DNA of 64,000 bases from Flavobacteriales bacterium (lineage in GTDB: Bacteria > Bacteroidota > Bacteroidia > Flavobacteriales_F > PHOS-HE28). The stretch lies in the NCBI GenBank assembly GCA_016710965.1, contig JADJTW010000002.1, forward strand, positions 283,299 to 347,298, in the 5' to 3' direction. A program made the translations under genes and the position numbers. The notes beneath the pieces were generated by a model. That model saw nothing but the letters and a program-made list of their open reading frames with translations, ran no database searches and was not told the origin of the DNA. The number at the start of each line of letters is the position of its first letter. The stretch's first letter is position 1. This document shows, one piece after another, positions 2,014 through 35,712 of the stretch.

Positions 2014-2274
2014 TCATCGCCTTTCTTCGGGAGCGGCTTTCGGATCCATCATTGGCGGCTCCTTCGCGTGCTCGCTGATGAACCATGCGAGCAGTACGAT
2101 CAACAGCAGTACGATGAACGACTTGGGATCCTTGTACAGTGGCTTGCGGTGCAACGCCGAGCGTGCGCGCTGGTAGTTGTACAGCAGCTTTCCCTGATCG
2201 CGATAGCGCAGCAATTCAGCATCGGAGGGCTCCTTGCCACGACCTTCGGGCGTTATGCGGTATTGGTGTTTCAT
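2014..2274 (-). CDS. small single-pass membrane protein, putative anti-sigma factor partner of the upstream ECF sigma
   Basis: 4-bp ATGA start/stop overlap with the sigma-factor gene; one hydrophobic helix (FIVLLLIVLLAWFI); 86 aa. Confidence 0.5.
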   Translation of the reverse strand: MKHQYRITPEGRGKEPSDAELLRYRDQGKLLYNYQRARSALHRKPLYKDPKSFIVLLLIVLLAWFISEHAKEPPMMDPKAAPEERR

Positions 2275-2861
2275 GCCCTTGGTGCAAGGTAGGTGCGCAA
2301 CGTGGCGAGCACTCTGTGGGTGCGCATCTTGGCAGCGTCCTCGCTGGTGCCGAGCAACTGGCCCATTTCCGCGAAGCTCATCCCGTCCATGTAGCGCAAG
2401 TGGATCAGCTGCGCACGTTCTTCATCCAGCTTCGCCATGGCGCTGGCCAGGCGTCGCATCTCATCATCTTCCATGGGCAGTCCTATCTCCTCGCTGAGGC
2501 CGGCCACCTGCCGATAGCTAAGATCGATGAGCACTTCCTTGCGCTTGCGCCAGTGCATGCGCAATTCGTTCAGCGCGATACGGTAGAGCCAGGCCCTGAA
2601 GGGCAGTCCGCGATGCTGGTATTTGGGCAGCGCCAGCATGGCCTTCACGAACGTGTCTTGCGCGAGATCATTCACTGTCGGACGGTCGGGGCAGCGGCGC
2701 AAGAGGAAGCGGAAGACATCGGCGAAATAGCGCTCGTACAATACGGTGAAGCGCCGCGGGTCGGCTACAGCTGCCTGGATTTCAGCCCCTTCCTGTTCCG
2801 TTGTGTCCGCCACTATGCTAAGGAATGACCTCGAAGCCAATTGGTAACGCGCATCGCACAT
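2271..2861 (-). CDS. RNA polymerase ECF-type sigma-70 factor (true start probably the GTG near 2810)
   Basis: Region 2 and region 4 motifs: 'FTVLYERYFADVFRFLLRRC', 'RAWLYRIALNELRMHWRKRK', 'LRYMDGMSFAEMGQLLGTSEDAAKMRTHRVL'. Confidence 0.85.
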   Translation of the reverse strand: MCDARYQLASRSFLSIVADTTEQEGAEIQAAVADPRRFTVLYERYFADVFRFLLRRCPDRPTVNDLAQDTFVKAMLALPKYQHRGLPFRAWLYRIALNELRMHWRKRKEVLIDLSYRQVAGLSEEIGLPMEDDEMRRLASAMAKLDEERAQLIHLRYMDGMSFAEMGQLLGTSEDAAKMRTHRVLATLRTYLAPRA

Positions 2862-2983
2862 GAAATACGATGATCATCCGATGATCCATCGATCCCAGAG
2901 GTCGATCGGTCGGTAACCAACGATGGTTGGCCGCCTAACCTTCCACAACCGTCGCCGTATCAAGCCCGCTCATTCTCTGGACT

Positions 2984-5410
2984 TTGATACCATCCAACCT
3001 TCAATCGGTGCAAATCCGGCGTTCGGCACGCTGGTTCTTGCTGTGCTTGCTGGTGCTGGCCTCATGCCACTGCCAGGTGTTCGCACAGGGCCATAGCTGG
3101 TCCTGGTCGTACGGCATTTCATCCAATTCCCCGGAACGGTTCCGTGAAGTGGCCGTGGACCGCAGCTCCGGCGATGTGTACGCCATCGGCGATGCGGACA
3201 ACAGTGGGGCGGTGATCACCGCGATGAACTTGGTGAACAGCAACCAGGCGATCCTGATGAAGCACAACGATCAGGGCGTGCTGCTATGGATGGCGCCCGT
3301 CGGGGGCAACGATGTAGAGACCGGCGAAGGCGTGGTGGTGGGGGATGACGGCACCGTTTATATCACGGGCACGTTTCGAAGCACTTGCCAGTTCTACAAC
3401 GCCGGTGGATCCGCTTCGGTGGGTTCGCTCGTCTCGGCCGGCAACAACGACATCTATGTGGCGGCCTACAGCACGAACGGAATATTCCAGTGGGCGCGCA
3501 GAATCGGCAACGGGAATGACGAGTTGTATCCGCATGTCGCCGTGGACGCCGCCGGCCTTTGGGTCTTCGCGAGCTTCCGTGGGAACCTCACCGTAGGCCC
3601 GTACGCCAGTTCGGCGTCGTTGTCATCGGGTACGTACGACTTGTGCCTGGTGCGCTATGACCTTTCAGGCAACGTCTCCAACATGATCACCGGTGGCAGC
3701 GTGCTGGACGACATCAGCGCGAACCTTGCTGGCGACGGAACTCGCATCTACGCTGCCTTGGTGAGCGGACAATCCCTTTTCCGCTGGTATACCAACACGG
3801 GCGCGCTGCAAGGGAATTCCACCAGTGGCAGTCAGAACGACCACCATTTCGCCGCCTTCGATCAGAACGGAACGCTGCAATGGACGCGTTACATCAGCGA
3901 CCCCAGCAATTCCATCGTCGGCTACCCGAACATCACCGTCGGTTGTGAAGGCGTGTACGTGGCCGGTGCTCTTAGCCCTGGAAGTGCATTCCAAGGAGGA
4001 GCCGCATCAGCGGGCTCGGTAGGCACGAATACGTTTTACGCAGGCCAGTTGCGTGCCAGTACCGGCGTAGTGCTTTGGAGCCAATGGGGCACCACCAGCA
4101 CGGCCAACGGCACCTTCGCTGCGCGCGACATAACGGTAGGCCGTGATGGGCTCGTGCATATCGTGGGCACATACGGCGGATCCATCTCCTTCAGCACGCA
4201 ATCCGCCGTTTCCACCGATTCCGAGGATCTCTTCCTGATGACGCTGCGGCCCACGGGCCAATTGCGCGCGTGGGATGCCATCAATGGACCCGATGCGCAA
4301 TACGCATCAGGTGTTGCAGCCGATGGCTTCGGTGGCGTGGTCATCTGCGGCAGCTTCCGCACCGGCCTGGCAGTGCCCTCCTTCCCGCTCGCGGGTCCGA
4401 ACAATGAGAACGCCTTCCTGTCCTATGCGCTGCTCGGTGGCCGCGCACCCGAGATCCGCGACGGATCCCGGTTCAACGCACCTGCAGCGGTATGCGACAA
4501 CTCGGGGCCCATCGACCTTGCTACCTGGATGGTCCCGCTCACCAGCGGCAACGCTGCGGCTCTTGTTTCATCCGTGGCTGTGGCCAACCCCGCGAATGCA
4601 CTGGGCCCAAGGGACAACAACAAAGCCGTGCTCAACGGTGGCACTGGCACGATGGTGCTGGATATGGCGAACACGGTCCCTGCGAACGAGGTGATCGTGA
4701 TGCGTTGGAACATGGGCAGCATGGCCAGCGCCACACCTACCCTATCGGCGTTCACATCTTCCGACAACGCCACATGGGTGCCTGTTGGAAGCGTGTACAG
4801 CACGACCAGCACATCGGGCATCTACTCGGTCATCGCGCTCGCGAACCCCGCTCGGTACCTCCGGATACAAGCCACCACGGCTGGCGGCACAGCCGAGATC
4901 GACGCCTTCTACTACTCTTTCGGTACCGTGAGCGGGGGCACCTGGACCGGCACCGGTGTCAGCGGGAGCACCTTCAACCCGAGCGGGCTAAGCGGCAGCG
5001 TGAACATCACGTACACCGTAGGCACCTCACCATGCGAAGACATCACCACCAAGGCGGTGATCGTGAGTGCTCCGCCGCAGCCGGGTTCCATCGCCGTGGT
5101 GCCTGCGGGCATGCAGTGCCCTGGCAATAATTCCGGCACGGTCACACTAACCGGTTACGTCGGCAATATCGGGCTGGGAAAGTCTCCACCGACGGCACGT
5201 GCTCGAACTCCCTCCCAACGTCTCCTCGCCAGACCCTTGTTGCGTACCACGGCGCAACACCGCCGTGAGCCTCCTGACACCTGCAGGTGCGGTCACTGGA
5301 GGAAGCATCAGTGCATCGGCCCTGGCGGATCGTCTCATCGGGTTGCGCTCGGCGGTAGCCTCGTCCATGGAGGAAGCCGATCACGCGTGGCACTAGCCTT
5401 CAGCGTATGA
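2984..5410 (+). CDS. adhesin segment 1: signal peptide plus propeller-like N-terminal region (in frame only to ~5185, then garbage)
   Basis: Signal peptide 'RRSARWFLLCLLVLASCHCQVFAQG'. Repeated 'DGTVYITGTF/ GLVHIVGTYGG' propeller-like blades. A coherent frame is lost in the 5170..5400 junction. Confidence 0.6.
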   Translation: MIPSNLQSVQIRRSARWFLLCLLVLASCHCQVFAQGHSWSWSYGISSNSPERFREVAVDRSSGDVYAIGDADNSGAVITAMNLVNSNQAILMKHNDQGVLLWMAPVGGNDVETGEGVVVGDDGTVYITGTFRSTCQFYNAGGSASVGSLVSAGNNDIYVAAYSTNGIFQWARRIGNGNDELYPHVAVDAAGLWVFASFRGNLTVGPYASSASLSSGTYDLCLVRYDLSGNVSNMITGGSVLDDISANLAGDGTRIYAALVSGQSLFRWYTNTGALQGNSTSGSQNDHHFAAFDQNGTLQWTRYISDPSNSIVGYPNITVGCEGVYVAGALSPGSAFQGGAASAGSVGTNTFYAGQLRASTGVVLWSQWGTTSTANGTFAARDITVGRDGLVHIVGTYGGSISFSTQSAVSTDSEDLFLMTLRPTGQLRAWDAINGPDAQYASGVAADGFGGVVICGSFRTGLAVPSFPLAGPNNENAFLSYALLGGRAPEIRDGSRFNAPAAVCDNSGPIDLATWMVPLTSGNAAALVSSVAVANPANALGPRDNNKAVLNGGTGTMVLDMANTVPANEVIVMRWNMGSMASATPTLSAFTSSDNATWVPVGSVYSTTSTSGIYSVIALANPARYLRIQATTAGGTAEIDAFYYSFGTVSGGTWTGTGVSGSTFNPSGLSGSVNITYTVGTSPCEDITTKAVIVSAPPQPGSIAVVPAGMQCPGNNSGTVTLTGYVGNIGLGKSPPTARARTPSQRLLARPLLRTTAQHRREPPDTCRCGHWRKHQCIGPGGSSHRVALGGSLVHGGSRSRVALAFSV

Positions 5411-8400
5411 CACCACTCCACCCGCCAAGGAACTGGGGTGGCACCATCGCCCCCGGTTCGTCAGCGCCCTGAACATCAGCGTGAACGCAGCCTCCAACGC
5501 ATGCAGCGCTACGGTTACCTGGAGCCCGCCGACGATGAGCGACAATTGCGTCGGCGGCAGCATGGCACAGACCGGCGGCCAGGCGCCCGGCAGCGCATTC
5601 GCCGTAGGCACGCACACGATCTCTTACACCGCGCTTGATGCGGCGAACAACGCGGCCACGTGCAGTTTCAGCATCACGGTGTCCGATGCGACGGCACCCG
5701 TGATCAGCTGCCCGTCCGATATCGCTGTGAACGCTGCTGCCGTTGGCTGCAGTGCCGTTGTCAACTACAACGTGCCGACATTCTCCGACAATTGCGCAGG
5801 AGCCACCATGGTGCGCATCTCCGGCCCTGCGAGCGGTTCGTCGTTCCCGGTCGGAACAACGCTGGTGAGCCACCGAGTGACAGCGGCCAACGGCATGGAG
5901 GCCGAGTGTACATTCTGGGTGACCGTCTTCGATGCTGAAGCGCCCGTTCTGGCCGGATGCGCCGACGTTGCAGCAAATAGTGCCGCAGGCCTTTGCACTG
6001 CCGTGGTGAATTATCCAACACCAACGTCGTCGGACAACTGCGCCAATTGCTCGCCCGCTGCGCCCGTCGGCGCAACGTTCATCGGCACCTACGACGGCCG
6101 TAGCTTCTACCTGAGCGCCAATGCCCTGCCATGGGGTCCTGCCAATTCCGCCGCTATTGCAGACGGCGGCCACCTGGTAGTGGTGGAGAATGCAGCAATG
6201 AACGCCTGGCTGCGCAATGCGGTGACCACGTCGGCAGGATCGCCGATCCCCTATTGGATCGGCTTGAACGACGCAGGTACAGAAGGCAATTACCGATGGA
6301 CGAATGCCATCAGTGCCACTTACCTCAACTGGGGAGCCCCGGCTCCGAACAATGGAGGCCCTACAGGCAATGAGGACTACGTGGAAGTGGGCGGCACCGG
6401 AAGCTGGAATGACCTGGCCAATACCGCCACGCTCCGGTACGTGATCGAGGTAGAATCGCCCTGCATCACACCGGTGCTGGTGACAGGGCAATTGAGCGGC
6501 ACTTCGTTCCCTGTGGGAACCACACCGGTGAAGTACATGAGCACCGATGCCGCTGGTAATAGCAGTACGTGCTCCTTCGATGTCGTGGTGAGCGACGCGC
6601 AGGATCCAATTGTCACCTGCCCAGGTTCCATCCCGCCATCAACACCACGAGCGCATGCCTGGCCTCCATGCCATTGGCTCTCCTTGGTCACGACCACGGA
6701 CAACTGCGGAATCGCCCCGGGCTCGCTCGTACAGAACCCAGCTCCCGGCGCGAGCGTGGGTGGAACCTTCACCGTCACCTTCACTGTCACCGATGTGAAC
6801 GGACGTACCGGCAATTGCTCAATCATCGCTTCAGTAACCGACAACGTTCCACCCGCCTTCCTCACCTGCCCTTCGAACAAGGTGCGGAACGATAGCGATG
6901 GCGACTGCGCTGAGAACGTCTCATGGGCAACACCCACCACCAGCGATAACTGCAGCGCGGTGTCCCTGGTGCGAACCGGTCCCGCCAGCAACTCAGCGTT
7001 CCCCATCGGCACAACCACGATCACGTATACGGCTACTGATGCTTCGGGCAACAGCAGCATCTGCTCCTTCACGGTCACTGTGAACGACAATGCGGCGCCG
7101 AGCGTGAGCTGCCCCCTCTATGACTACTACCCCATCTACCTGAACGGCTCCTGCAACCTGCCCTTCCCCGATATGCGCGATTCGATCAGCGTAAGCGATT
7201 GCAGCGCATGGACGAACGTCATGGATCCGCCAGCCGGATATGTGTTCACGCGTGACACTACTTTCTTCATGACCATGGACATCGATGACGTCCACGGCCA
7301 TCATGTCGACAACGACCACTGGATCCACATCGTGGACGATACGCCGCCCGCCTTCACACCCCAGCCGGACGTCATCCTCGCAATGGATGGAACAGGGAAT
7401 ATCACCATCCCCGATCTCCTTCCCAACTACGCCGGAGCCACGGATTGCACCACGCCCATCACCAAGTCGCAGGACGTCGCACCTGGAACTCAAGCAAGCG
7501 TGCCCACGCTCGTGAAGATCTTCCTGGTCGATGCCGTGAACAACAGCTCGATCGATAGCGTGATGGTGATCCCCTTCGACAACATGCCACCGGTGCTCAC
7601 CTGCCCTGCGGATATTACCATAAGCGCATCACCTGGAGCCTGCAACGCCGCAGTGAGCTTCACAGCGACCGCAACCGACAACACTGGCGCAGCCCCTGCG
7701 GTCACTTACTCACCTTCCTCCGGAAGTGCCTTCGGCCTCGGCACAACCACGGTCACGGTCACGGCGCAGGATGCTGCGCTGAATCAATCAACATGCACGT
7801 TCACGGTCACGGTGAGTCCGGCAGTAGTCGATATCGCGTATCCGGTGGCGACCGTCTGCAATAGCTCTGCATCGATCCTTCCGAGCACCGTGATCCCTGC
7901 GATCAGTGGTGGAGGCGTATTCTCCGACGCCAGCCAGAGCAGCCCATCGACGATCGATCCCGTGACGGGAGAATTCAACCCGGCCGTTGCGGCGCCGGGC
8001 TTGCACACCATCCAATACGTCTTCACCGGAGCATGCACGAGCCAGGATGTGTTCACGATCGATGTGGTCGACGCTCCCAATGCAGGAAGCAATGGATCGC
8101 TCGCAACATGCTCGAACGGCCCCGTGCAAAGCCTCTTCGCTCAGCTCGGTGGTTCACCATCAGCAGTTGGAACCTGGAGCGGTCCCAGTACGGTGACTGC
8201 GGGGAACCACGACCCCGCCACCATGGATCCAGGAGTGTACATCTATACCGTCGCTGGATCGGCCCCCTGTCCGGACGCGACCGCCACAGTCACCGTCTCT
8301 GAAGTCGCCGCGCCGAGCGCAGGTACGAATGGGACCTTGACGGTGTGCAGCAACAGCTCCAACCAAAGCCTGTTAGCCTTCCTCGGAGGCTTCCCGGCAA

Positions 8401-9293
8401 GCGGCGGTACATGGTCCGGTCCAAGCCCTGTGATAGCGAACACGTATGCACCAGCAACGATGGATCCTGGCGTGTACACCTACACGGTAGCTGGGAACGC
8501 TCCTTGCGCAAGCGCGATCGCGACGGTCACGGTGACCGAGAACGCCGCGATCACTTACTACGCAGATCAGGACAGTGATGGCTTCGGAGATCCTGCAACG
8601 AGCGTGTTCGTTTGCGCGGCGCCGATGGGTTACGTCCTCAACAACACCGACCTGTGCCCATTCGATGTGAACAAGGTATTGCCCGGGCAGTGCGGTTGCG
8701 GTAACGCTGATACTGACAATGATGATGACGGCACCGCGAACTGCCTGGACGATTGCCCGAATGATCCCAACAAGGTCACACCGGGGATATGCGGTTGTGG
8801 CGTGAGCGAACTTGATAGCGACGGAGATGGCATGGCGGATTGCATCGACAACTGTCCGACGCTCTTCGGGCAGATCGGTTCACCATGCGATGATGGCTTG
8901 GCCACCACGGGCAACGATGTGATCGATGCGAGCTGCACCTGCGTGGGACAACTCATCGATTGTACCGGTGTGCCCGGTGGATCCAACCTCATCGGCACCG
9001 CGTGCGATGACGGCAACGCCGCCACCGGCAACGACACCTGGGATGCGAGCTGCACCTGCGTGGGACAACTGATCGATTGCGAGGGAACCGCTGGCGGTAC
9101 TGCGTTGATCGGACCCTGCGATGACCAACGCCGCGACCGGCAACGACACCGGGATGCGACTGCCGGTGCCGTGGATCCTCATCGGCACCGCGCGATGACG
9201 GCAACGCTTCAGGGCAACGACACCTGGGATGCGACTGCACCTGCGTGGGACAACTCATCGATTGTACGGGAACCGCTGGTGGTACTGCGTTGA
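5397..9293 (+). CDS. adhesin segment 2: tandem HYR domains, embedded C-type lectin domain, thrombospondin type-3 Ca repeats, start of Cys-rich repeat array (frame lost ~9110)
   Basis: HYR signatures 'C.A.V.W..P..SDNC...' recur many times. The C-type lectin domain is 'YWIGLNDAGTEGNYRWTN...NWGAPAPNNGG..EDYVEVGGTGSWNDLAN' (6180..6450). TSP3-like 'DQDSDGFGDP', 'DTDNDDDGTANCLDDCPNDPNK', 'DSDGDGMADCIDNCP'. The frame is open from 5397; the track start at 5481 is a GTG inside a domain. Confidence 0.65.
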   Translation, partial: PSAYDTTPPAKELGWHHRPRFVSALNISVNAASNACSATVTWSPPTMSDNCVGGSMAQTGGQAPGSAFAVGTHTISYTALDAANNAATCSFSITVSDATAPVISCPSDIAVNAAAVGCSAVVNYNVPTFSDNCAGATMVRISGPASGSSFPVGTTLVSHRVTAANGMEAECTFWVTVFDAEAPVLAGCADVAANSAAGLCTAVVNYPTPTSSDNCANCSPAAPVGATFIGTYDGRSFYLSANALPWGPANSAAIADGGHLVVVENAAMNAWLRNAVTTSAGSPIPYWIGLNDAGTEGNYRWTNAISATYLNWGAPAPNNGGPTGNEDYVEVGGTGSWNDLANTATLRYVIEVESPCITPVLVTGQLSGTSFPVGTTPVKYMSTDAAGNSSTCSFDVVVSDAQDPIVTCPGSIPPSTPRAHAWPPCHWLSLVTTTDNCGIAPGSLVQNPAPGASVGGTFTVTFTVTDVNGRTGNCSIIASVTDNVPPAFLTCPSNKVRNDSDGDCAENVSWATPTTSDNCSAVSLVRTGPASNSAFPIGTTTITYTATDASGNSSICSFTVTVNDNAAPSVSCPLYDYYPIYLNGSCNLPFPDMRDSISVSDCSAWTNVMDPPAGYVFTRDTTFFMTMDIDDVHGHHVDNDHWIHIVDDTPPAFTPQPDVILAMDGTGNITIPDLLPNYAGATDCTTPITKSQDVAPGTQASVPTLVKIFLVDAVNNSSIDSVMVIPFDNMPPVLTCPADITISASPGACNAAVSFTATATDNTGAAPAVTYSPSSGSAFGLGTTTVTVTAQDAALNQSTCTFTVTVSPAVVDIAYPVATVCNSSASILPSTVIPAISGGGVFSDASQSSPSTIDPVTGEFNPAVAAPGLHTIQYVFTGACTSQDVFTIDVVDAPNAGSNGSLATCSNGPVQSLFAQLGGSPSAVGTWSGPSTVTAGNHDPATMDPGVYIYTVAGSAPCPDATATVTVSEVAAPSAGTNGTLTVCSNSSNQSLLAFLGGFPASGGTWSGPSPVIANTYAPATMDPGVYTYTVAGNAPCASAIATVTVTENAAITYYADQDSDGFGDPATSVFVCAAPMGYVLNNTDLCPFDVNKVLPGQCGCGNADTDNDDDGTANCLDDCPNDPNKVTPGICGCGVSELDSDGDGMADCIDNCPTLFGQIGSPCDDGLATTGNDVIDASCTCVGQLIDCTGVPGGSNLIGTACDDGNAATGNDTWDASCTCVGQLIDCEGTAGGTALIGPCDDQRRDRQRHRDATAGAVDPHRHRAMTATLQGNDTWDATAPAWDNSSIVREPLVVLR

Positions 9294-12200
9294 TCGGAAC
9301 GCCTTGCGATGATCTCAACGCCGCGACCGGCAACGACACCTGGGATGCGAGCTGCACCTGCGTGGGACAACTGATCGATTGTACCGGTGTGCCCGGTGGA
9401 TCCAACCTCATCGGCACCGCGTGCGATGACGGCAACGCTTCCACGGGCAACGACACCTGGGATGCGAGCTGCACCTGCGTCGGTCAGCTCATCGATTGCG
9501 AGGGAACCGCTGGTGGTACTGCGTTGATCGGCAACGCCTGCGATGATCTCAACGCCGCGACCGGCAACGACACCTGGACGGCAAACACCTGGGATGCGCC
9601 TTGCACCTGCGTGGGACAACTCATCGATTGTACCGGTGTGCCCGGTGGATCCAACCTCATCGGCACCGCGTGCGATGATCTCAACGCCGCGACCGGCAAC
9701 GACACCTGGGATGCGACTTGCACCTGCGTCGGTCAGCTCATCGATTGCGAGGGAACCGCTGGTGGTACTGCGTTGATCGGCACATCCTGCGATGATCTCA
9801 ACGCCGCGACCGGCAACGACACCTGGGATGCGACTTGCACCTGCGTGGGACAACTCATCGATTGTACCGGTGTGCCCGGTGGATCCAACCTCATCGGCAC
9901 CGCGTGCGATGACGGCAACGCCGCCACCGGCAACGACACCTGGGATGCGAGCTGCACCTGCGTGGGACAACTCATCGATTGTACCGGTGTGCCCGGTGGA
10001 TCCAACCTCATCGGCACCGCGTGCGATGACGGCAACGCCGCGACCGGCAACGACACCTGGGATGCGAGCTGCACCTGCGTGGGACAACTGATCGATTGTA
10101 CCGGTGTGCCCGGTGGATCCAACCTCATCGGCACCGCGTGCGATGACGGCAACGCTTCGACCGGCAACGACACCTGGGATGAGCGCACCTGCGTGGGACA
10201 ACTCATCGATTGTCCGGTGTGCCCGGTGATCAGCCTCATCGGCACCGCGTGCGATGATCTCAACGCCGCGACCGGCAACGACACCTGGGATGCGACTTGC
10301 ACCTGCGTGGGACAACTCATCGATTGCGAGGGAACCGCTGGTGGTACTGCGTTGATCGGAACGCCTTGCGATGATCTCAACGCCGCGACCGGCAACGACA
10401 CCTGGGATGCGACTTGCACCTGCGTGGGACAACTCATCGATTGTACCGGTGTGCCCGGTGGATCCAACCTCATCGGCACCGCGTGCGATGACGGCAACGC
10501 CGCCACCGGCAACGACACCTGGGATGCGAGCTGCACCTGCGTGGGACAACTCATCGATTGTCCGGTGGCGCCGGGGGTCCAACCTCATCGGCACCGCGTG
10601 CGATGACGGCAACGCCGCACCGGCAACGACACCTGGGATGCGACTTGCACCTGCGTGGGACAACTCATCGATTGCGGGAACCGCTGGTGGTACTGCCTCA
10701 TCGGCACCCCGTGCGATGACCTCAACGCCGCGACCGGCAACGACACCTGGGATGCGACCTGCACCTGCGTGGGACAACTCATCGATTGTACCGGTGTGCC
10801 CGGTGGATCCAACCTCATCGGCACCGCGTGCGATGACGGCAACGCCGCCACCGGCAACGACACCTGGGATGCGACCTGCACCTGCGTGGGACAACTCATC
10901 GATTGCAAGGACAGTGTGCCTGGACAGCTCATCGGCACCCCGTGCGATGACCTCAACGCCGCGACCGGCAACGACACCTGGGATGCGACTTGCACCTGCG
11001 TGGGACAACTCATCGATTGCGAGGGAGCCCCCGGTGGTACCGCGCTGATCGGAACGCCTTGCGATGACGGCAACGCCGCCACCGGCAACGACACCTGGGA
11101 TGCGAGCTGCACCTGCGTGGGACAACTCATCGATTGTACCGGTGTGCCCGGTGGATCCAACCTCATCGGCACCGCGTGCGATGACGGCAACGCTTCCACC
11201 GGCAACGACACCTGGGATGCGAGCTGCACCTGCGTGGGACAACTCATCGATTGTACCGGTGTGCCCGGTGGATCCAACCTCATCGGCACCGCGTGCGATG
11301 ACGGCAACGCTTCCACGGGCAACGACACCGTCGGCGTGCGGCAACCTGGGATGCGACTTGCACCTGCGTGGGACAACTCATCGATTGTACCGGTGTGCCT
11401 GGGATCCAACCTCATCGGCACCGCGTGCGATGACGGCAACGCCGCGACCGGCAACGACACCTGGGATGCGACTTGCACCTGCGTGGGACAACTCATCGAT
11501 TGCGAGGGACCGCTGGTGGTACTGCGTCATCGGCACCGCCTTGCGATGATCTCAACGCCGCGACCGGCAACGACACCTGGGATGCGAGCTGCACCTGCGT
11601 GGGACAACTGATCGATTGTACCGGTGTGCCCGGTGGATCCAACCTCATCGGCACCGCGTGCGATGACGGCAACGCTTCCACGGGCAACGACACCTGGGAT
11701 GCGAGCTGCACCTGCGTGGGACAGCTCATGGGTAGTTCCGGTTGGCCGGGTGGATCCAACCTCATCGGCACCGCGTGCGATGACGGCAACGCCGCGACCG
11801 GCAACGACACCTGGGATGCGAGCTGCACCTGCGTGGGACAACTCATCGATTGCGAGGGAACCGCTGGTGGTACTGCGTTGATCGGCACATCCTGCGATGA
11901 TCTCAACGCCGCGACCGGCAACGACACTTGGGATGCGAGCTGCACCTGCGTGGGACAACTGATCGATTGTACCGGTGTGCCCGGTGGATCCAACCTCATC
12001 GGCACCGCGTGCGATGACGGCAACGCTTCCACGGGCAACGACACCTGGGATGCGACTTGCACCTGCGTGGGACAACTCATCGATTGCGAGGGAACCGCTG
12101 GTGGTACTGCGTTGATCGGCACATCCTGCGATGATCTCAACGCCGCGACCGGCCACGACACTTGTGATGCGACTTGCACCTGCGTGGGACAACTCATCGA

Positions 12201-13090
12201 TTGCGGGGAACCGCCGCATCGGCACCGCGTGCGATGACGGCAACGCTTCCACGGGCAACGACACCTGGGATGCGACTTGCACCTGCGTGGGACAACTCAT
12301 CGATTGTACCGGTGTGCCCGGTGGATCCAACCTCATCGGCACCGCGTGCGATGACGGCAACGCCGCCACCGGCAACGACACCTGGGATGCGAGCTGCACC
12401 TGCGTGGGACAACTCATCGATTGTACCGGTGTGCCGGGATCCAACCTCATCGGCACCGCGTGCGACGACGGCAACGCCGCCACCGGCAACGACACCTGGG
12501 ATGCGCTGCACCTGCGTGGGCAGCTCATGGGGGGGCCCGGTGGTACGGGGGTGGGATCCAACGCCGCGACCGGCAACGACACTTGGGATGCGACTTGCAC
12601 CTGCGTGGGACAACTCATCGATTGTACCGGTGTGCCCGGTGGATCCAACCTCATCGGCACCGCGTGCGATGACGGCAACGCCGCCACCGGCAACGACACC
12701 TGGGATGCGACTTGCACCTGCGTGGGACAACTCATCGATTGCGGGGACGCTGGTGGCTGCTGCGCGGGCGGTGCCAACGCCGCGACCGGCAACGACACCT
12801 GGGATGCGACCTGCACCTGCGTGGGACAACGTCGATTGGACCGGTGGGCCGGTGCGACATCCGGAACGCCTTGCGATGACGGCAACGCTTCCACCGGCAA
12901 CGACACCTGGGATGCGAGCTGCACCTGCGTGGGACAACTCATCGATTGTACCGGTGTGCCCGGTGGATCCAACCTCATCGGCACCGCGTGCGATGACGGC
13001 AACGCCGCGACCGGCAACGACACCTGGGATGCGACTTGCACCTGCGTGGGACAACTCATCGATTGCGAGGGAACCGCTGGTGGTACTGCC
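8880..13090 (+). repeat. tandem array of ~36 near-identical 117-bp units encoding a 39-aa Cys-rich repeat (consensus CTCVGQLIDC[T/E]G[VP/TA]GG[SN/TA]LIGT[A/P]CDD[G/L]NAATGNDTWDA[S/T]), coding, with numerous small indels
   Basis: The period is 117 bp, seen directly (e.g. 9301/9418/9535...). Two alternating unit variants occur. Indels fall at ~9110-9240, 10180, 10560, 10670, 11330, 11500, 12190, 12420, 12490-12560, 12720, 12830. Confidence 0.9.
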
Positions 13091-14075
13091 GTCATCGACA
13101 ACTGCGGCACCTGCGTCGGCGGTACCACTGGCAACATCGCCTGCACACAGGACTGCGCGGGCGTCTGGGGCGGTACAGCATTCCTCGACAACTGCGGCAT
13201 CTGCGTCGGCGGTACCACTGGCAACATCGCTTGCACACAGGACTGCGCAGGTGTCTGGGGCGGCACCGCCGTCACTGACAACTGCGGCAACTGCGTCGGT
13301 GGAACGACCGGCAACACGCACACAGGACTGCGCAGGTGTCTGGGGCGGCACCGCCGTCCTCGACAACTGCGGAACATGCGTCGGTGGAACCACTGGCAAC
13401 ACAGCTTGCACACAGGACTGCGCTGGCGTTTGGGGCGGCACCGCCGTCACTGACAACTGCGGAACATGCGTGGGCGGAACCACCGGTAACATCGCCTGCA
13501 CACAGGACTGCGCAGGAGTGTGGGGCGGCACCGCCGTCCTCGACAACTGCGGAACATGCGTTGGTGGCACTACCGGTAACGTTGCTTGCACTCAGGACTG
13601 CGCTGGCGTTTGGGGCGGAACAGCCGTCCTCGACAACTGCGGAACATGCGTCGGTGGAACCACTGGCAACACAGCTTGCACTCAGGACTGCGCTGGCGTT
13701 TGGGGCGGAACAGCCGTCCTCGACAACTGCGGAACATGCGTCGGCGGAACTACCGGCAACGTGGCCTGCACACAGGACTGCGCTGGTGTTTGGGGCGGAA
13801 CAGCCGTCACTGACAACTGCGCAACATGCGTCGGCGGAACGACAGGTAATGTCGCTTGCACACAAGACTGCGCAGGTGTTTGGGGCGGAACAGCCGTCAC
13901 TGACAACTGCGGAACATGCGTGGGCGGAACCACTGGTAACACAGCATGCACACAGGACTGCGCTGGTGTTTGGGGCGGAACAGCCGTCACTGACAACTGC
14001 GGAACATGCGTGGGCGGAACCACTGGTAACACAGCATGCACACAGGACTGCGCAGGCGTCTGGGGCGGAACGTCA
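13090..14075 (+). repeat. tandem array of ~10 x 99-bp units encoding a 33-aa Cys/Gly repeat (CTQDCAGVWGGTAV[LT]DNCGTCVGGTTGN[TIV]A), coding
   Basis: The period is 99 bp ('ctgcacacaggactgcgc' recurs at 13138, 13237, 13336...). A 5-nt deletion near 13315 switches the frame. Confidence 0.85.
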
Positions 14076-15260
14076 ATGCCACCAGTTGCTGGTGATGATG
14101 GCAGTGCCACGATTTGCGCCGGAACCAGCATCGATCTGACCACACTGCTCAGTGGTGCTGATACTGGTGGGGTCTGGAGTGTCGGTCCTGTGGTGAGTTC
14201 TACCGGCACCTTCACCTATACAGTGACGAATGCCTGTGGAAGCGATGAATCAAGCTTCACAATAACCCACGAGGCGTTGGCTGATGCGAGCTGGTCCATC
14301 CCTCCTGCCATCTGCGAAACCGCACCGCCCCTGGTCCTTTCGAATTTGATCACTGGGGACCAAGGTGGAACGTGGAGCGGCGCTGGGGTGCTGGGCAGCA
14401 GCTTCGACCCGACTGGACTGGTGGGACCGATCCAAGTGACTTACACCGTCGGGACGGCGAACTGCATCTCCCAGGAATCGCATACGATCCAAGTGGGTCA
14501 GATGCCCATGGCCGATGCGGGCGAGGATGCTATATTCTGCGGCACCGACGGGCTGGTTAACGCTGTGCTCACAACAGGCAGCGGATCGTGGACCCTTCCC
14601 AACGGGTTGAATCCTGGAGGAGCGTTGACCGCGCCCGACTTGGAACTGCACGCTTCAACCTTCGCGAGCTACACCTTGTACTGGACCGTGACCGATGGTC
14701 CTTGCATTGCCCAGGATGCGACGGAGGTCACCTTCATGAACCCAGACCTAGGCTTGGCCGTGGACGCCGGTCCGGACCAATACCTGGAAGTATTGAGCAC
14801 CGCAATCATGCAAGGCCATGCGACTCCTGGTGCCACCATCGAATGGTGGTTGCTTTCAGGTGGCGGCACCCTCCTGGTGCCCAGCGATACGAACAGCACG
14901 GTGCAGGACCTCGCTCTCGGCGACAACTACTTCGTACTCACCGTCTCCTTGGGACAGTGCGCCAGTATCAGCGACACTGTGCTCTTGCACGTCGACGACC
15001 TCTTCATCCCCGAAGGCTACTCACCGAACGGCGACGGGGTGAACGATCGATGGGAGATCACGGGCATCAGCGCATTCCCTGGCAGTTCGCTCAAGGTCTT
15101 CAACCGCTGGGGGCAATTGGTGTACGAGAGCGACAGCTACAACAACGAGTGGGACGGGCACGCCTTGTATGGCCGGGAATTGCCCGATGCGACCTACTTC
15201 TATGTGCTGAACCTAAGCAGTGACCGCACGTACAACGGCCACGTCATCCTGAAAAGGTGA
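13330..15260 (+). CDS. adhesin segment 3 (C-terminal): 33-aa repeats, Ig-like/SprB-type region and gliding-motility-associated C-terminal (CHU_C, T9SS type B) sorting domain
   Basis: Terminal 'FIPEGYSPNGDGVNDRWEITGISAFPGSSLKVFNRWGQLVYESDSYNNEWDGH...TYFYVL'. This is the in-frame part of the track ORF 12174..15260; its 5' 1.1 kb is an out-of-frame read of the repeats. Confidence 0.7.
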
Positions 15261-16180
15261 GGTCCATCCGTCATATCCTCTTCATAGCCGTCACAGGTTG
15301 CGCGCTTCTGGCCAATGGCCAGCATACGCCGCTGACGAGCCAGTACCTCTTCAACGGGCTGCTGATCAACCCGGCCTACGCAGGCAGCCGCGACGCGCTT
15401 ACGGCCAATATCACCCACCGCCAGCAGTGGGTGGGCTTCGACGGCGCACCGGTAACGCAGGTGATGAGCTTGCACTCTCCCGTTGGTCGAACCAAGATGG
15501 GACTGGGCATGGTGCTTTACAACGACCACATCGGCGTAAGCAACGAAACGGGGCTCTTCGGCAACTTCGCCTACCGCATCCGCTTTCCGCATGGCAAGCT
15601 GTCCTTCGGGATCGGCGGCGGGTTCAGCGTTCTTCGCGCTGATTGGAGCCAGGTGGCCTTGCAGGACAACAACGATGGCTCCTTCGCCGGGACGACATCG
15701 GCCGCCTTGAGGCCGAATTTCAGCGGTGGGGCATACTACTACACGAAGACATGGTATGTCGGGGCCTCGATGCCCTTCGCTCTAGTGCATAGCTACGACC
15801 TGAGCGGCAACGGATACGACCTCACCCAGGAACGCTTCGACATGCAACCCATGCTCACTGGCGGATACGTCATACAGATGAACGACGACATCAAGCTGAA
15901 GCCGACTGCGTTGGCTCGTTATCGGCTCGATAGCGGACCGCAGGGCGACCTTAGCTGCAACGCGATCTACAAGGACAAGATCTGGGCGGGGCTCAGCTAC
16001 CGCACCGGCGATGCGCTTATCGGCATGGTGGAAGTCCTTCCTACTCCGCAATGGCGTTTCGGATACGCTTACGACCTTGGCCTCTCTGCCATCCGTCCCT
16101 ACCACAATGGCTCGCACGAATTGATGCTCCAATACGAATTCGGCTATCGCATACGCGTACGCGACCCACGCTATTTCTGA
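15257..16180 (+). CDS. type IX secretion system membrane protein, PorP/SprF family
   Basis: GTG start overlapping the adhesin stop (GTGA). N-terminus 'QYLFNGLLINPAYAG' and overall beta-barrel PorP/SprF pattern; ~307 aa as is typical. Confidence 0.9.
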   Translation: MRSIRHILFIAVTGCALLANGQHTPLTSQYLFNGLLINPAYAGSRDALTANITHRQQWVGFDGAPVTQVMSLHSPVGRTKMGLGMVLYNDHIGVSNETGLFGNFAYRIRFPHGKLSFGIGGGFSVLRADWSQVALQDNNDGSFAGTTSAALRPNFSGGAYYYTKTWYVGASMPFALVHSYDLSGNGYDLTQERFDMQPMLTGGYVIQMNDDIKLKPTALARYRLDSGPQGDLSCNAIYKDKIWAGLSYRTGDALIGMVEVLPTPQWRFGYAYDLGLSAIRPYHNGSHELMLQYEFGYRIRVRDPRYF

Positions 16181-18393
16181 TGAGGCGCATCCTGTCCATA
16201 GCACTCCTGCTCCCGTGCATCGCTCTGGTGTCCGCGCAGGAGATCTACGAGGTGAAACCCGTGGGCGTGCTACCAGCCGGAGAGGATTACGCGCCGGTTT
16301 TCCTCGATAGCGGCTTCGTCATGTGCAGCGTGCGCGAAGTCGGCGGTGCCATCACATTCACCGATGCCGAGACGAACAAGCCGCTCAGTGAGCTTTTCTG
16401 GGTGCCTTGGAAGAACGGCATGGCGGGAACACCCGTGATCTTCAGTGTGCAGCTCTCCACTCCCGTGAATGAAGGCCCTGCCGCGTTCACCGATGGAGGG
16501 CGGACCATCTGCTATACACGCAACCAGGTGCTGCCGAAGAGGCTATCGAACTTGCGGAGCGCCAGTAGCGAACTAGGGCTTTACTTCTCGCACTTGAACG
16601 ATGGAGCGTGGCAGCCGCCGGTGCCCTTCCAGCACAACGCACCGAAGTACTCGATCATGCACCCGACGTTCAGCCCGGACGGCCGCACGCTCTTCTTCGC
16701 CAGCGATATGCCCGGTGGCATGGGCGGCATGGACCTGTACCGCAGCGAACGCACGATCGAGGGCTGGTCTGAACCTGTGGCACTGGGCCCGGAGGTGAAC
16801 AGCCCCAGGAACGAAGTTTTCCCACGCGTGGAGGCCGACGGCAGTTTGAGCTTCGCAAGCGATCGCAGCGGTGGCAAAGGGGGGCTCGATATATACGTGG
16901 CACCTCCTTCCGATGGCGGTTGGGGCCCGCCGTTGGCCTTGCCGGAGCCGGTCAACAGCGCAGCCAACGACCATGGATACGAGCTCCTGCCCGATGGCCG
17001 AAGCGCGCTCTTCACCACCAACCGCGCCGGCATCGATGCGATATGGACGGCCAAGCTCACTGTACCCAAGTTCCGCGAATGCGCCCAGCAGCAACGCAAC
17101 AACTACTGCTATTCCTTCAAGCGTCGGCCTCACGCTGCAACTGCAAGCATTCCCGTTGAGCATGCATGGGATATGGGCGACGGTACGCGGATCAAAGGCA
17201 ATCAAGCGCAGCACTGCTATGCGAAGCCGGGCCGATTCACAGTGAGTTCCGTGCTGCTGGACAAGAAGAGCGGAGAGGTCTTCCACACGCTGAGCAGCAA
17301 CGAACTGGAGGTGGCGGATATGATGCAGGCATGGATCGCGTCAGAGGACACGGTGCGGACCGGTCGCAAAATGGAACTGAGCGGAGCCATGAGCTATCTG
17401 CCCGGCATGACGCCTGCCGAGTACCACTGGGAGATGGGCAACGGCGAACTCCTCGAAGGCATCAGCCAGGAGTACGCCTTCAAGCGAGCAGGCACCTATG
17501 AAGTGCGGCTCGACGTGCTCTCGACGCCTGACGCCAAAGGGACCATCAGTAATCGTTGCAACAGCAAGACCATCGTCGTCATCGACCGCTTCCGCGACCA
17601 TGAGGACATGACCGTGGTCGCGGCATACCAGGACGCATTCGGAAAGACGCACACCTTCGAGTACCAGGAGCTTCCTTTCGATGCGACGGCCCTGGAAGGC
17701 GACGCGCTCACCGAGGTCACCTTCAGCGTACAGCTGTTCGCCAGCAAGGACCGCGTGGACTTGGACGATGCGCGCTTCGCCCAGGTGCGGAAGCTCTACC
17801 GCGTCGTGGAACGCTACGACCCAGCGACAGCCCTGTACACCTATTCGGTGGGCGAGACCAAGAACATGGAGGAGCTGTACAAGGTCTTCCAGAAGGTGAA
17901 GGAACTCCAGTTCCTCGATGCCGAAGTCTTCGCCCTCCGGGTTGAGAAGCTCATGGACCTGAGCCAGCTCGATCTAGCGACCCTGGAAGAGCTCAATCAC
18001 AAGAAACTGCGTACGAATGCGATCCACTTCGCCTACAAGAGCGCGGTGCTGGAACCCGGTTCCGAGCAGGTGCTGGAAGGGATCACCGACCTCATGCGCC
18101 AGCATCCCGAGCTCCAGTTGGTGATCGAAGCCCACACCGACGACATCGGTGGTCGCCAGTACAACCTCGGGCTCTCGCAAGAACGTGCGATGTCCGTGGT
18201 GGGCTATCTCGTGGAACATGGCGTGCTGCTCGACCGATTGGTGCCTGTCGGCCACGGCAAGAACCAGCCGATCGCCAGCAACAAGACCGAGGAAGGACGC
18301 AGCCAGAACCGACGCGTGGAGTTCCGGATGGTCGTGAAAGGCGAAGTGGCCCCGACGGGAGCGTTGCTCAGCGGCGCCACGCCGAAGCGCTGA
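16180..18393 (+). CDS. OmpA-family protein with TolB-like (PD40) repeats and a C-terminal OmpA peptidoglycan-binding domain
   Basis: ATG at 16180 overlaps the PorP stop (TGATG). Signal peptide MRRILSIALLLPCIALVSAQE. PD40-like 'FSPDGRTLFFASD...GGMDLY' repeats. C-terminal 'LVIEAHTDDIGGRQYNLGLSQERAMSVVGYLVEHGV...GHGKNQPIASNKTEEGRSQNRRVEF'. Confidence 0.85.
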   Translation: MRRILSIALLLPCIALVSAQEIYEVKPVGVLPAGEDYAPVFLDSGFVMCSVREVGGAITFTDAETNKPLSELFWVPWKNGMAGTPVIFSVQLSTPVNEGPAAFTDGGRTICYTRNQVLPKRLSNLRSASSELGLYFSHLNDGAWQPPVPFQHNAPKYSIMHPTFSPDGRTLFFASDMPGGMGGMDLYRSERTIEGWSEPVALGPEVNSPRNEVFPRVEADGSLSFASDRSGGKGGLDIYVAPPSDGGWGPPLALPEPVNSAANDHGYELLPDGRSALFTTNRAGIDAIWTAKLTVPKFRECAQQQRNNYCYSFKRRPHAATASIPVEHAWDMGDGTRIKGNQAQHCYAKPGRFTVSSVLLDKKSGEVFHTLSSNELEVADMMQAWIASEDTVRTGRKMELSGAMSYLPGMTPAEYHWEMGNGELLEGISQEYAFKRAGTYEVRLDVLSTPDAKGTISNRCNSKTIVVIDRFRDHEDMTVVAAYQDAFGKTHTFEYQELPFDATALEGDALTEVTFSVQLFASKDRVDLDDARFAQVRKLYRVVERYDPATALYTYSVGETKNMEELYKVFQKVKELQFLDAEVFALRVEKLMDLSQLDLATLEELNHKKLRTNAIHFAYKSAVLEPGSEQVLEGITDLMRQHPELQLVIEAHTDDIGGRQYNLGLSQERAMSVVGYLVEHGVLLDRLVPVGHGKNQPIASNKTEEGRSQNRRVEFRMVVKGEVAPTGALLSGATPKR

Positions 18394-18489: not shown

Positions 18490-21400
18490 ATGCCTGAAGG
18501 CGATGGCTACTTTCGCCCAGTGCGCTACACGCTTCCTTCGGTCCTCATCCTTCTTGCGGGCGCGTGCGCGATCGAACTGAACGCGCAGCACGCTCTGCGT
18601 TTCGTGGAGAACAAGGGACAGTGGCCAGTGCAAGCCCGCTTCCGGGCCGAGTTGAACGGAGCTACTCTGTGGATGGAGCCCGATGGCGTACTGATAGACC
18701 GCTACGATGCCGAAGCGGTGGAGAGGACGCACGGTGACATCAACGCGCGCATTCCCACGGAGCTGAGGCACCACGCCGTGCGCCTGAAGTTCCTGGGGGC
18801 TCTTCCCACGGCGCATGCGCGCGGCGAACGGCTCTTGCGCGAGCATTACAACTTCTTCATCGGCAACGACCCGGCGCAATGGGCGCACAGGGCCAGGGCC
18901 TTCGCCCAGGTGGTGATGCCGGAGGTGGCGCCGGGCTGCGATGCCGTCTTCAGCGAAGGACGAGCAGGGTTGAAGTACGATCTGGTGCTTGACCCCGGTG
19001 CCGATCCCGCTGGCATCCGTTTCGAGTATGAAGGCGCCGGTCAATTGATGCTGCGCGATGGCGCACTGATCGTGCCCACTTCCCTCGGTCGGCTCGTCGA
19101 GCGCATTCCGCTGGCCTATCAGGACATCGATGGCGAGCGTGCGGTAGTACCGTGCAGCTATACATTGAAGGATGGGATCGTGGGTGTGAAGCCCGGTGCA
19201 TACGACAAGCGGTATCCATTGACGATCGATCCCACGCTCTCTTTCGCCACCTACTCAGGTTCATTCAGCAACAACTTCGGCTACACCGCCACCTTCGATC
19301 AGGCGGGCTTCCTCTATGCGGGCAGTACCGCGTTCGGGACGCAGTTCCCCGTGACCACGGGCGCTTACCAGACCGCATGGGCGGGCGGCACCACCGACAT
19401 CGCCATCACCAAGTACGATACTACGGGCACCTTCATCGTATGGAGCACCTACCTCGGCGGCAGCGCTGCAGAGATGCCGCATAGCTTGATCGTTGACGAC
19501 AACGACCAGCTCCTGGTGCTGGGCACCACTGGTTCGGCCGATTTCCCCATGTTCAATGCGTATGACAACACCTTCGGGGGCGGCACCACCTTCACCCCTG
19601 CCGGGCTGGGCCTCAGCTACCCCAACGGTTGCGATATGGTCGTTTCGCGCTTGAGCGCTGACGGATCGGCGCTATTGGGCTCAACGTATCTCGGGGGAAG
19701 CGCGAATGACGGATTGAATTCCGCAACGGCGCTCAAGTTCAACTACGCCGATGAGGTGCGAGGAGAAGTGCTTCTCGATACGCTCGGACGTGTGTGGGTG
19801 GTGAGCTGCACCCAGAGCATCAATGCACCGACCACCGCGGGGGCCGCGCAACCCATTTTCGGCGGAGGAAGCCACGACGGATACGTGGCCCGTTTCAACC
19901 CGCTCCTTTCGCAATTGCAGTACGCCAGCTTCATCGGCGGCAGCAATGCCGATGCGACCTTCTCCGGCGAGTTCGACACGGCGGGCAGGCTCTTCGTCTG
20001 CGGCGGCACCAACAGCAACGACCTGCCCGTGAGCGCATCGGCGCTCGACCCCACCTACAACGGCGCTGCGCCCGACGCGTTCGTTGCGCGTTTCACACCG
20101 AATGGCAGCACCATCGATGCGCTCACCTACTGGGATCGAGCAACTACGACCAGGCCTATTTCGTGGAACTCGACCACAACGACGACGTGTACATCTTCGG
20201 GCAGACGAATGCACCCAGCGGAGAGCTCATACTGAACGCACCGTACAACATCCCTGCGGGTGGCCAGTTCATCACCAAGCTCGATCCCACGCTGTCCAAT
20301 CTGCTGCTCAGCTCGCGCATCGGCAAGGGCGATGGCACACCGGACATCTCCCCCACCGCCTTCCTTGTTGATGTGTGCGACAAGATCTACACGAGCGGCT
20401 GGGGCAGCAGCGCAGGCGGACTTGGCGGCGCGCTGAGCACCAATGGCCTGCCAGTGACAGCGGGCGCGCACCAGTCCACCACCGACAACAATGACCTGTA
20501 CCTGGCGGTCTTCGACATCGACATGCAGGCGTTGGTGTATGCCACCTACTACGGCGGCGCGCTGAGCCCTGAGCATGTCGATGGCGGTACAAGCCGGTTC
20601 GATCGCCGCGGGCGGGTTTACCAGAGCGTGTGCGCCGGCTGTCAGAACAACGATGACTTCCCCACTTCACCAGGAGCATGGAGCGCCACCAATAACAGCA
20701 GCGGCTGCAACAACGGGGTATTGAAGTTCGATTTCGACGCACCGTTGGTGATCGCGGCCTTCATCGCACCGGACACGCTGTGCGCGAACGAGACTGTGAC
20801 CTTCACGAACCTCAGCAGCGGCGCCACGGGCTATCTGTGGAACTTCGGCGATACGCAGACTTCCACGGCAGCATCGCCCACGCATACCTATGGTCCCGGC
20901 ACCTACGTGGTAACGCTTACGGCCACCGACCCGAATTCGTGCAACGGTCAGGACGTTGTCCAGCGCACCGTGGTCATCGCTCCCGAAGCCCCGGTCCTAA
21001 CCGTGATGAACGACACGCTCATCTGCGGACCGGTCCCTTCGTTCACGCTGACGGCGAGCAGCAACGGCACCGTGTTGCAATGGCTTTGGAGCTCGACAGC
21101 GGCATTCGCGGACATGCTGAATGCGACGGACGCGGACAGCACGGCACTGATCGAACCAGCGGTGAGCGGCACCTACCATGTGCGCGCGCAGAATTCGCCG
21201 GCGTGCCCGGCCATCGATAGTGTCGTGGTCATCATATCGCTCGGCGCGGTCGGCATAACCGGCGAAACGGAGATCTGCGCCACTGATACGGCGACGCTGC
21301 TGGTGAGCGGCGCCGATCCCGGTTCCACCATCGTTTGGTCGCCAGGGAACGAGATCATCGCAGGGCAAGGGACGAGCACCGTGCAAGTGGCGCCAGCCGA

Positions 21401-23032: not shown

Positions 23033-23035
23033 CGC

Positions 23036-35043: not shown

Positions 35044-35095
35044 GTTGAGTGGGGTTCTGTTTGTGCCTAGGGCTGTCTGGTGCGATCTGCTGGGC

Positions 35096-35668: not shown

Positions 35669-35712
35669 GGTCCTTGTTATTGTCGAATAGCTGCCTGTTG
35701 CCTTGCTGATCC

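Follow-up and report, generated by a model that had tools for sequence, protein, structure and literature searches.

The broken reading frame of a giant type IX secretion adhesin gene from an activated-sludge Flavobacteriales is probably an assembly artefact

Introduction

When the gene of a giant bacterial surface protein appears in a genome database with its reading frame broken at dozens of sites, is the gene broken in the cell or only in the assembly? This question is raised by an adhesin gene of a Flavobacteriales bacterium of the PHOS-HE28 group, which lies on contig JADJTW010000002.1 of the metagenome-assembled genome (MAG) GCA_016710965.1. The stretch analysed here covers positions 283,299 to 347,298 of the forward strand, 64,000 nucleotides (nt) in all, and is referred to below as the window.

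Our answer is that the breaks are probably an artefact of assembly and polishing in a functional gene, which would encode an adhesin of about 4,100 amino acids (aa) in an activated-sludge Flavobacteriales. This reading is preferred because deletions outnumber insertions 44 to 4, because indels have accumulated without substitutions, because the damage clusters at columns that distinguish two repeat subtypes (A and B), because the ratio of nonsynonymous to synonymous polymorphism (pN/pS) within the repeat units is low, and because orthologs assembled from short reads are intact.

Extent of the gene and its breaks

The adhesin coding region is on the plus strand and runs from a GTG at 3008 (the earliest TTG is at 2984) to a stop codon at 15258-15260, with no single reading frame throughout. 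Long stop-free stretches occupy frame 1 (2939-5410), frame 2 (5397-9293), mixed frames from 9125 to 12237, and frame 2 again (12168-15260), so that stop codon avoidance alone requires at least six frame switches, which is a lower bound. The flanking unique coding sequence, in blocks of 2.2 kb, 3.7 kb and 1.2 kb, is without stop codons. The features on which the argument turns are as follows.

3008..15260, + strand: adhesin, a conceptual single gene of about 4,100 aa with a type IX secretion system (T9SS) C-terminal domain (CTD) of type B, from the open-frame map, exact NCBI protein matches and orthologs with a single open reading frame (ORF)
5165..5400, + strand: garbled patch of unique sequence within an immunoglobulin-like (Ig-like) domain, from the frame map and frameshift-aware alignment
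8961..13063, + strand: 36 tandem units of a 39-aa four-cysteine module (117 nt), a mixture of the subtypes A, B and C, from repeat finding and unit alignment
13097..14077, + strand: 11 tandem units of a 30-aa four-cysteine module (90 nt), from Tandem Repeats Finder and unit alignment

GenBank cuts the gene into at least two proteins. The first ORF is MBK8497479.1 at 100% identity (800 aa, start 3008; 'MAG: hypothetical protein IPL52_01355 [Flavobacteriales bacterium]'), and the second is MBK8497480.1, also at 100% identity (1270 aa, 5481-9293; NCBI name 'HYR domain-containing protein', locus tag IPL52). A preliminary description of this DNA had counted more than 12 break sites, almost all of them inside two near-perfect repeat arrays, and had proposed a conceptual length of about 4,100 aa. 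The broken frames are indeed present in the sequence, but the count was an underestimate, as the 117-nt array alone contains 48 indel events. The breaks are concentrated in the repeats as described, although nearly all of them lie in the first array and only one in the 90-nt array. The conceptual length is right as long as the assembled repeat copy number is correct.

The tandem arrays

The 117-nt array is bordered by a partial unit at either end (8866-8960 and 13064-13096), and its 39-aa module has the consensus CTGVPGGSNLIGTACDDGNAATGNDTWDA[ST]CTCVGQLID. Subtype A is represented by 14 clean copies with a mean identity of 95.6%, some of them identical; subtype B, which begins CEGTAGGTALIGTP..., is 92% identical internally and 77% identical to A; and subtype C is one unit of 114 nt. 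The longest exact repeat in this array is 195 nt. For this array Tandem Repeats Finder reports 82% matches and 5% indels, and for the 90-nt array 87% and 2%; the mixture of subtypes explains why the first value is no higher. The 30-aa module of the second array reads DNCGTCVGGTTGNxACTQDCAGVWGGTAVx, also written as DNCGTCVGGTTGN.ACTQDCAGVWGGTAV., and its copies are nearly identical as proteins but only about 88% identical as DNA. The term "near-perfect" therefore suits subtype A of the first array, but not subtype B, the pairing of A with B, or the 90-nt array.

Indel events were counted by affine alignment of each unit to templates. In the 117-nt array 21 units are clean, and the 48 events are confined to the other 15 of the 36; they consist of 44 deletions and 4 insertions, 42 have a length that is not a multiple of three, and the net length is out of frame in 11 units. 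Compared with the nearest clean unit, damaged units carry 2.9 indels per 100 nt and clean units 0.12, an enrichment of about 24-fold, whereas substitutions differ only about 1.3-fold (3.8 and 2.8 per 100 nt, respectively). The events are also unevenly placed, as 33 of the 48 fall within the first 50 of the 117 columns, where A and B differ (binomial p=3.6e-4), and the damaged units resemble A/B hybrids. Insertions of 15-17 nt have the form of stutters, and the two long ones repeat 'GGCAACGACACCTGG'. In the 90-nt array, the sole break is a 5-nt deletion at about 13318, in unit 3. The extent of damage thus depends on array identity: the array that is 88% identical, in which short reads can be placed, has one break, while the subtype-rich array that is 95-100% identical has 48 events. 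The units themselves remain under constraint, with a pN/pS of 0.21-0.29 in the 117-nt array and 0.095 in the 90-nt array, and clean units of both kinds are under purifying selection (pN/pS 0.1-0.3).

These observations are best explained by consensus errors, biased toward deletions, that were left in a metagenome assembly from Nanopore data. Reads of near-identical units would align out of register and yield an A/B hybrid consensus, and a single round of short-read polishing would be unable to place its reads within the array. Recent slippage, which the preliminary description had offered as a second possibility, does not fit: slippage alters whole 117-nt units, and the lesions here are deletions of 1-5 nt together with A/B hybrid units. 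Because the hybrids arise at columns where A and B differ, they point to a consensus of out-of-register reads rather than to slippage.

The same numbers bear on the possibility of a genuine pseudogene, in which the adhesin is truly inactivated, at least by the 5165..5400 patch, and the array indels are real mutations, in part or in full. Loss of giant adhesin genes is frequent, which speaks for this possibility. However, substitutions far outnumber indels in the neutral decay of a bacterial pseudogene, and here it is indels that are enriched, with almost no excess of substitutions. The strong bias toward deletions, the clustering at A/B-distinguishing columns, a unit pN/pS that is not near 1, and the stop-free unique flanks likewise argue against decay.

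Sequencing provenance and orthologs

The methods text of Singleton 2021 (PMC8012365) describes Nanopore reads that were assembled with CANU and polished with Racon, two rounds of medaka (r941) and a single Racon round with Illumina reads, and the supplement of that study includes the MAG JADJDP (IPG92) as a member of Flavobacteriales, family PHOS-HE28. The closest ortholog of the adhesin, P0002 (58% identical, IPG92), is on JADJDP010000015, a contig named in the 'tig' style of CANU. The locus tags (IPF41, IPG92, IPL52, IPO79) and the accessions run in series, from which we infer that the window MAG belongs to the same batch, very probably the Nanopore activated-sludge set of that study.

Most of the 64-kb window reads cleanly. 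The neighbouring cargo gene (18490-22007), however, consists of two overlapping ORFs split by a 1-nt deletion at about 20131, in unique sequence, and insertion of one C before 20131 ('TAC^CTGGGATC') gives a single ORF of 1172 aa with DUF7948, SBBP, PKD, Ig_7 and CHU_C domains. That an unrelated neighbour also carries such a deletion is a further point against a genuine pseudogene. Further frameshifts had been suspected in three places (54.5-57.9 kb, 34-36 kb and 28-31 kb), all of which hold normal, separate genes. Most events lie outside methylated CCWGG/GATC sites, and systematic errors of basecalling there could not be established as the source; the deletion at 20131 and a few array events are in CCTGG or GGATC contexts, and the 5165..5400 junction holds one CCTGG and two GATC. 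In another assembly, L011 (JAWKNE010000005.1), the housekeeping genes for diaminopimelate (DAP) epimerase, YceG and phosphoglucomutase are each split into at least two called genes, which suggests genome-wide indel errors in that assembly.

In the short-read MAG L004 (JAEYWT010000299), the ortholog is one ORF of 2276 aa, followed by PorP/SprF and OmpA genes. In the short-read MAG L005 (UBA7690), it is an ORF of at least 3099 aa that is open to the contig end, with the order propeller, Ig-like domain, HYR, lectin, HYR, TSP3-like motif, 39-aa module and second module. The 39-aa module has one or two copies in these two orthologs and about 36 here. By contrast, L010 (JADKFQ010000007.1, IPO79), which shares the locus-tag series of the window MAG, has a clean ORF of 2216 aa and then at least seven frame changes once its own 117-nt array starts; its array of the 39-aa module (7600-12494) is annotated as six small hypothetical proteins, and the contig stops inside the array. 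L003 (JADJDP), a documented Nanopore MAG, carries a frameshift and an in-frame stop that lie close to the counterpart of the 5165..5400 junction without coinciding with it, and its contig ends 0.5 kb further on. The preliminary description had held that frameshifts in related strains, together with reads uniformly supporting the indels, would favour a genuine pseudogene; of the relatives, the short-read L004 and L005 keep an intact locus, and it is broken only in L003 and L010.

Four related MAGs have contigs that stop within the repeat-rich part of the ortholog or shortly ahead of it (L001/L003 at 11930-12439; L002 and L005 at their ends), and the adhesin family is a recurrent assembly breakpoint. 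A same-species assembly that would show the true sequence was not found, the best match having 78% identity and none reaching 90% or more in any collection. A scan of genome contigs for the HYR/lectin block found nothing, and a metagenome scan gave relatives at 25-34% only.

Intact orthologs in L004 and L005, and equal fragmentation of an array of the same type in L010, add to the evidence against a genuine pseudogene, which we consider unlikely overall. The claim that the cell's mega-adhesin is inactivated is probably wrong, in view of the roughly 24-fold excess of indels beside a 1.3-fold excess of substitutions, the pN/pS of 0.095-0.29 and the intact orthologs. Unpolished repeat assembly, which had been favoured over ancient pseudogenisation, is backed by provenance, indel spectrum, selection on the units and the same orthologs.

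Surface adhesins are also classic phase-variable genes, and the breaks might be regulatory, being bypassed by programmed frameshifting or switched by slippage at simple repeats. However, there are dozens of breaks without any homopolymer or short-repeat tract, the 5165..5400 junction has no run of four or more identical bases, break positions are not conserved in L003 or L010, and orthologs read through without a frameshift. This explanation is therefore barely credible.

The 5165..5400 patch

The patch at 5165..5400 was singled out in the preliminary description as a separate case, and justifiably so: it is unique sequence, its frame is incoherent, and a TAG at 5394-5396 closes frame 2. At least three to four frame hops would be needed to cross it, about 230 nt are undecodable, and third-position periodicity of guanine plus cytosine (GC) content is lost across 5165-5400. 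Frameshift-aware protein-to-DNA alignment with three ortholog guides failed to decode 5190..5400, recovering only the start of the Ig-like domain ('CPGNNSGTVTLTGYVGNI / GWES / STDG') and its last strand ('RVALAFSV / YDTTPP'). Neither a paralogue of the patch in the window nor a run of four or more identical bases within it was found, and orthologs traverse the equivalent Ig-like domain in one frame.

This patch speaks for a genuine pseudogene, since it combines unique sequence with an incoherent frame and a TAG, and since short-read polishing ought to succeed at a unique junction. If the lesion is real, the gene would be inactivated whether or not the array is intact. Candidates for the origin of the patch are a stretch that was left unpolished locally, a mixture of strains that vary in the Ig-like domain, and a true lesion.

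The second of these candidates extends to the whole locus. Population heterogeneity would mean that strains differing in the order and number of units and in the Ig-like domain were merged into a chimeric consensus, such that the indels are artefactual but the locus is truly polymorphic and evolves fast. The damage does lie where A and B units differ and yields A/B hybrids, copy number ranges from one or two units in L004 and L005 to about 36 here, and both Nanopore MAGs are garbled near the Ig-like domain, at differing positions; moreover, many PHOS-HE28 Flavobacteriales MAGs are present in the one data set described in Singleton 2021 (PMC8012365). Out-of-register reads from one genome would nevertheless give identical hybrids, which makes polymorphism unneeded, and no close relative (90% identity or more) was found in any collection for comparison. 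We consider this explanation improbable, to about the same degree as a pseudogene.

Several considerations weigh against attributing the breaks to assembly and polishing. Because the patch is unique sequence, misalignment of repeats cannot explain it, and its frame hops are far denser than those elsewhere in unique sequence. The assembly may also have the number of array units wrong. The artefact was deduced from the assembled sequence, and the link of this MAG to the Nanopore project is inferred from locus-tag and accession series. A composite reading, in which part of the damage is real, with the patch and/or the A/B hybrids reflecting a polymorphic or recently inactivated adhesin locus in the sludge population, is rather unlikely, though somewhat less so than either alternative above. 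In the polymorphic case, the order or number of array units, and the Ig-like domain, would vary among strains that live side by side. An assembly and polishing artefact remains the explanation that we prefer.

Domain architecture and the cysteine-rich modules

Outside the damaged stretches, the adhesin can be divided into the following parts.

3008..3088, + strand: predicted Sec signal peptide, (M)QIRRSARWFLLCLLVLASCHCQVFA with Q next after the predicted cut, from the translation read by eye only
3095..4354, + strand: SBBP-like beta-propeller region (NF047494 SBBP lipoprotein E=1e-10, below its cutoff)
4652..4888, + strand: weak match to a possible discoidin / F5_F8_type_C-like domain (Pfam, 15 bits at E=0.029, under the cutoff)
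5397..9120, + strand: block that reads cleanly in frame 2 and contains HYR domains and one C-type lectin domain (Pfam)
8796..8861, + strand: single thrombospondin type-3-like calcium-binding motif (DSDGDGMADCIDNCP; Pfam TSP_3 21.7 bits, below the cutoff of 25)
15006..15245, + strand: T9SS type B C-terminal sorting domain, CHU_C / TIGR04131 (Pfam and NCBIfam)

A Pfam search of the N-terminal 725 aa returned no family, although homologues of this part bear PF06739 SBBP propeller repeats, and the ortholog P0003 is named 'discoidin domain-containing' by NCBI. HYR domains score above the Pfam gathering threshold (246.1 bits in five stretches, the best at 6840-7082), as does Lectin_C at 6162-6440 (35.8 bits against a cutoff of 22.6); the region equivalent to the lectin domain is also present in the L005 ortholog. 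At the C-terminus, CHU_C scores 87 bits (cutoff 27) and TIGR04131 71.8 bits (cutoff 35). In these profile searches, the architecture given in the preliminary description, namely HYR, C-type lectin, CHU_C and two unnamed cysteine-rich families, holds in each part. The "TSP3 domains" that it listed reduce to one TSP3-like motif below the threshold, while homologues sharing the cysteine-rich modules do bear PF02412 (TSP_3). SprB repeats (PF13573) were found neither in the seven open-frame pieces (E<=0.01) nor in the repeat pieces (E<=5).

Neither module matched anything in Pfam, NCBIfam or PDB sequence searches, and both are almost certainly uncurated domain families. The 39-aa module follows the motif DC.G.PGGSALPGT.C[DN]DGN..TGNDTW...C.C.GQ.I (representative units at 9629-10096), and among 1.84 billion proteins it matches 735 cluster representatives (E<=1e-3). 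Matches with a named source are almost all from Flavobacteriales, and TSP3 repeats, a T9SS type A sorting domain or both are present in several of them. Four units modelled with AlphaFold give a confident structure, with a predicted local distance difference test (pLDDT) score of 89.5 and one beta-hairpin per unit; a Foldseek search with a model of the module found no solved structure in the PDB that matches. Intact arrays exist elsewhere, with about 17 near-identical units in P0090, the identical protein having been recovered from three MAGs, whose contigs reach 3.9 Mb, and about 24 units in P0089. The 39-aa module is a real, modest-sized, uncurated family and a candidate for a new curated domain family, and it has almost certainly been amplified from one or two copies to about 36 in this lineage. 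As for the 30-aa module, the UBA7690 ortholog ends in repeats of a 33-aa variant (L005, about 18900-19280), and single copies of the module precede TSP3 repeats in the Flavobacteriales T9SS proteins P0064, P0065, P0076 and P0079.

Neighbouring genes, secretion and anchoring

Two genes follow the adhesin directly.

15257..16180, + strand: PorP/SprF-family outer-membrane protein gene, the presumed cognate partner (PF11751 245.9 bits; TIGR03519 249.1 bits, cutoff 90.55)
16180..18393, + strand: PorE-like gene with PD40 propeller, PKD and OmpA peptidoglycan-binding domains, ATG at 16180 (Pfam; NF052230 190.7 bits)

The first of these overlaps the adhesin stop codon; the second scores 190.7 bits against the NF052230 PorE family, below its cutoff of 600. 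The order of cargo, PorP-like and OmpA-type genes is kept in L004. The adhesin has the features expected of T9SS type B cargo, namely the CTD of type B, a signal peptide predicted by eye and an adjacent PorP/SprF-like gene, and by its sequence it appears to be a giant type B cargo with PorP-like and PorE-like partners, which is an already known kind.

Gorasia et al. 2022 (PMC9143113) reported that PorE binds PorP, that PorP binds the type B cargo PG1035 and that SprF binds SprB, and postulated static anchoring to the cell wall for cargo whose gene adjoins both a porP-like and a porE-like gene; the sprB-sprF pair lacks a neighbour of the porE-like kind. By that model, the adhesin would be a fixed surface fibre rather than a mobile gliding adhesin of the SprB type. 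The earlier label of an SprB-like gliding adhesin is not borne out, given that SprB repeats were not found and that a porP-like and then a porE-like gene lie downstream. By homology, Sec would carry the protein into the periplasm, the PorP/SprF-like protein encoded downstream would retain it at the cell surface, and the PorE-like OmpA protein would probably link the adhesin-PorP complex to peptidoglycan, with the cysteine-rich arrays forming a long, rigid stalk that presents the lectin/HYR/propeller head.

A second cargo triad follows at 18490-25255, comprising a type B cargo, a PorP/SprF gene (22004-23032, 102 bits) and a TPR/PD40/DUF1573 protein (23036-25255), which occupies the PorE-like slot and has no OmpA domain. 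Upstream of the adhesin, a divergent gene for a sigma-70 factor of the extracytoplasmic function (ECF) type (2271-2861, minus strand) may be a dedicated regulator of the adhesin; a sigma-70 gene occupies this position in L001 and L002 as well. Further T9SS cargo in the window includes a Reg_prop protein with a type A sorting tail beside a CotH/LTD protein (38989-42851, minus strand) and a 468-aa protein with CHU_C (56861-58267, plus strand). A cluster at 34216-38849 (minus strand) encodes a helix-turn-helix (HTH)/S24 peptidase repressor-like protein, an ORF6N/Rha-like protein and a PIF1-like helicase with HTH_40; it adjoins a drop in GC content to about 57% and may be a mobile element remnant.

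Implications and comparison with known systems

In GenBank, this locus stands as separate 'hypothetical' and 'HYR domain-containing' proteins plus fragments, whereas the organism most likely makes one T9SS adhesin of about 4,100 aa. In such MAGs, repeat-rich surface genes inflate the tallies of pseudogenes and fragmented genes. Artefacts of this kind can be flagged without reads by a combined signature: a bias toward deletions, indels that are not accompanied by substitutions, damage at subtype-distinguishing columns and a low pN/pS of clean units. In addition, the tandem sets of cargo, porP-like and porE-like genes, which occur twice in the window, and the 36-fold expansion of a disulfide-rich module offer a modest lead on the long stalks of floc-dwelling Flavobacteriales.

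The damage can be compared with the indels of MAGs assembled from Nanopore R9.4.1 reads with the pipeline of PMC8012365, where small, deletion-biased indels outlast CANU, Racon, medaka and Illumina Racon. The likeness extends to the array of the 39-aa module, which is fragmented in L010, and to the short-read contigs of L002 and L005, which end in or before the arrays. The present case differs in an error density that is extreme but localised, with damaged units at about 2.9 events per 100 nt, and in the unique 230-nt patch, which is atypical of error driven by repeats.

With regard to the protein itself, the SprB-SprF pair of Flavobacterium johnsoniae is similar in that a surface protein of giant size and repetitive sequence ends in a type B CTD (TIGR04131/CHU_C) and has a PorP/SprF-family gene directly 3' of its gene; SprF binds SprB and anchors it (PMC9143113). 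However, PF13573 repeats were not found here, the domains being an SBBP-like propeller, HYR and C-type lectin domains and two unnamed cysteine-rich modules, and sprB-sprF has no porE-like gene (PMC9143113), whereas one (16180-18393) follows the porP-like gene here. The order of cargo, PorP-like and OmpA-type PorE-like genes is instead that of PG1035-PorP-PorE of Porphyromonas gingivalis and of those F. johnsoniae type B cargo genes that adjoin porP-like and porE-like genes. Compared with PG1035-PorP-PorE, the cargo described here is about ten times larger and has long tandem arrays, and its PorE-like protein contains PKD and scores below the family cutoff.

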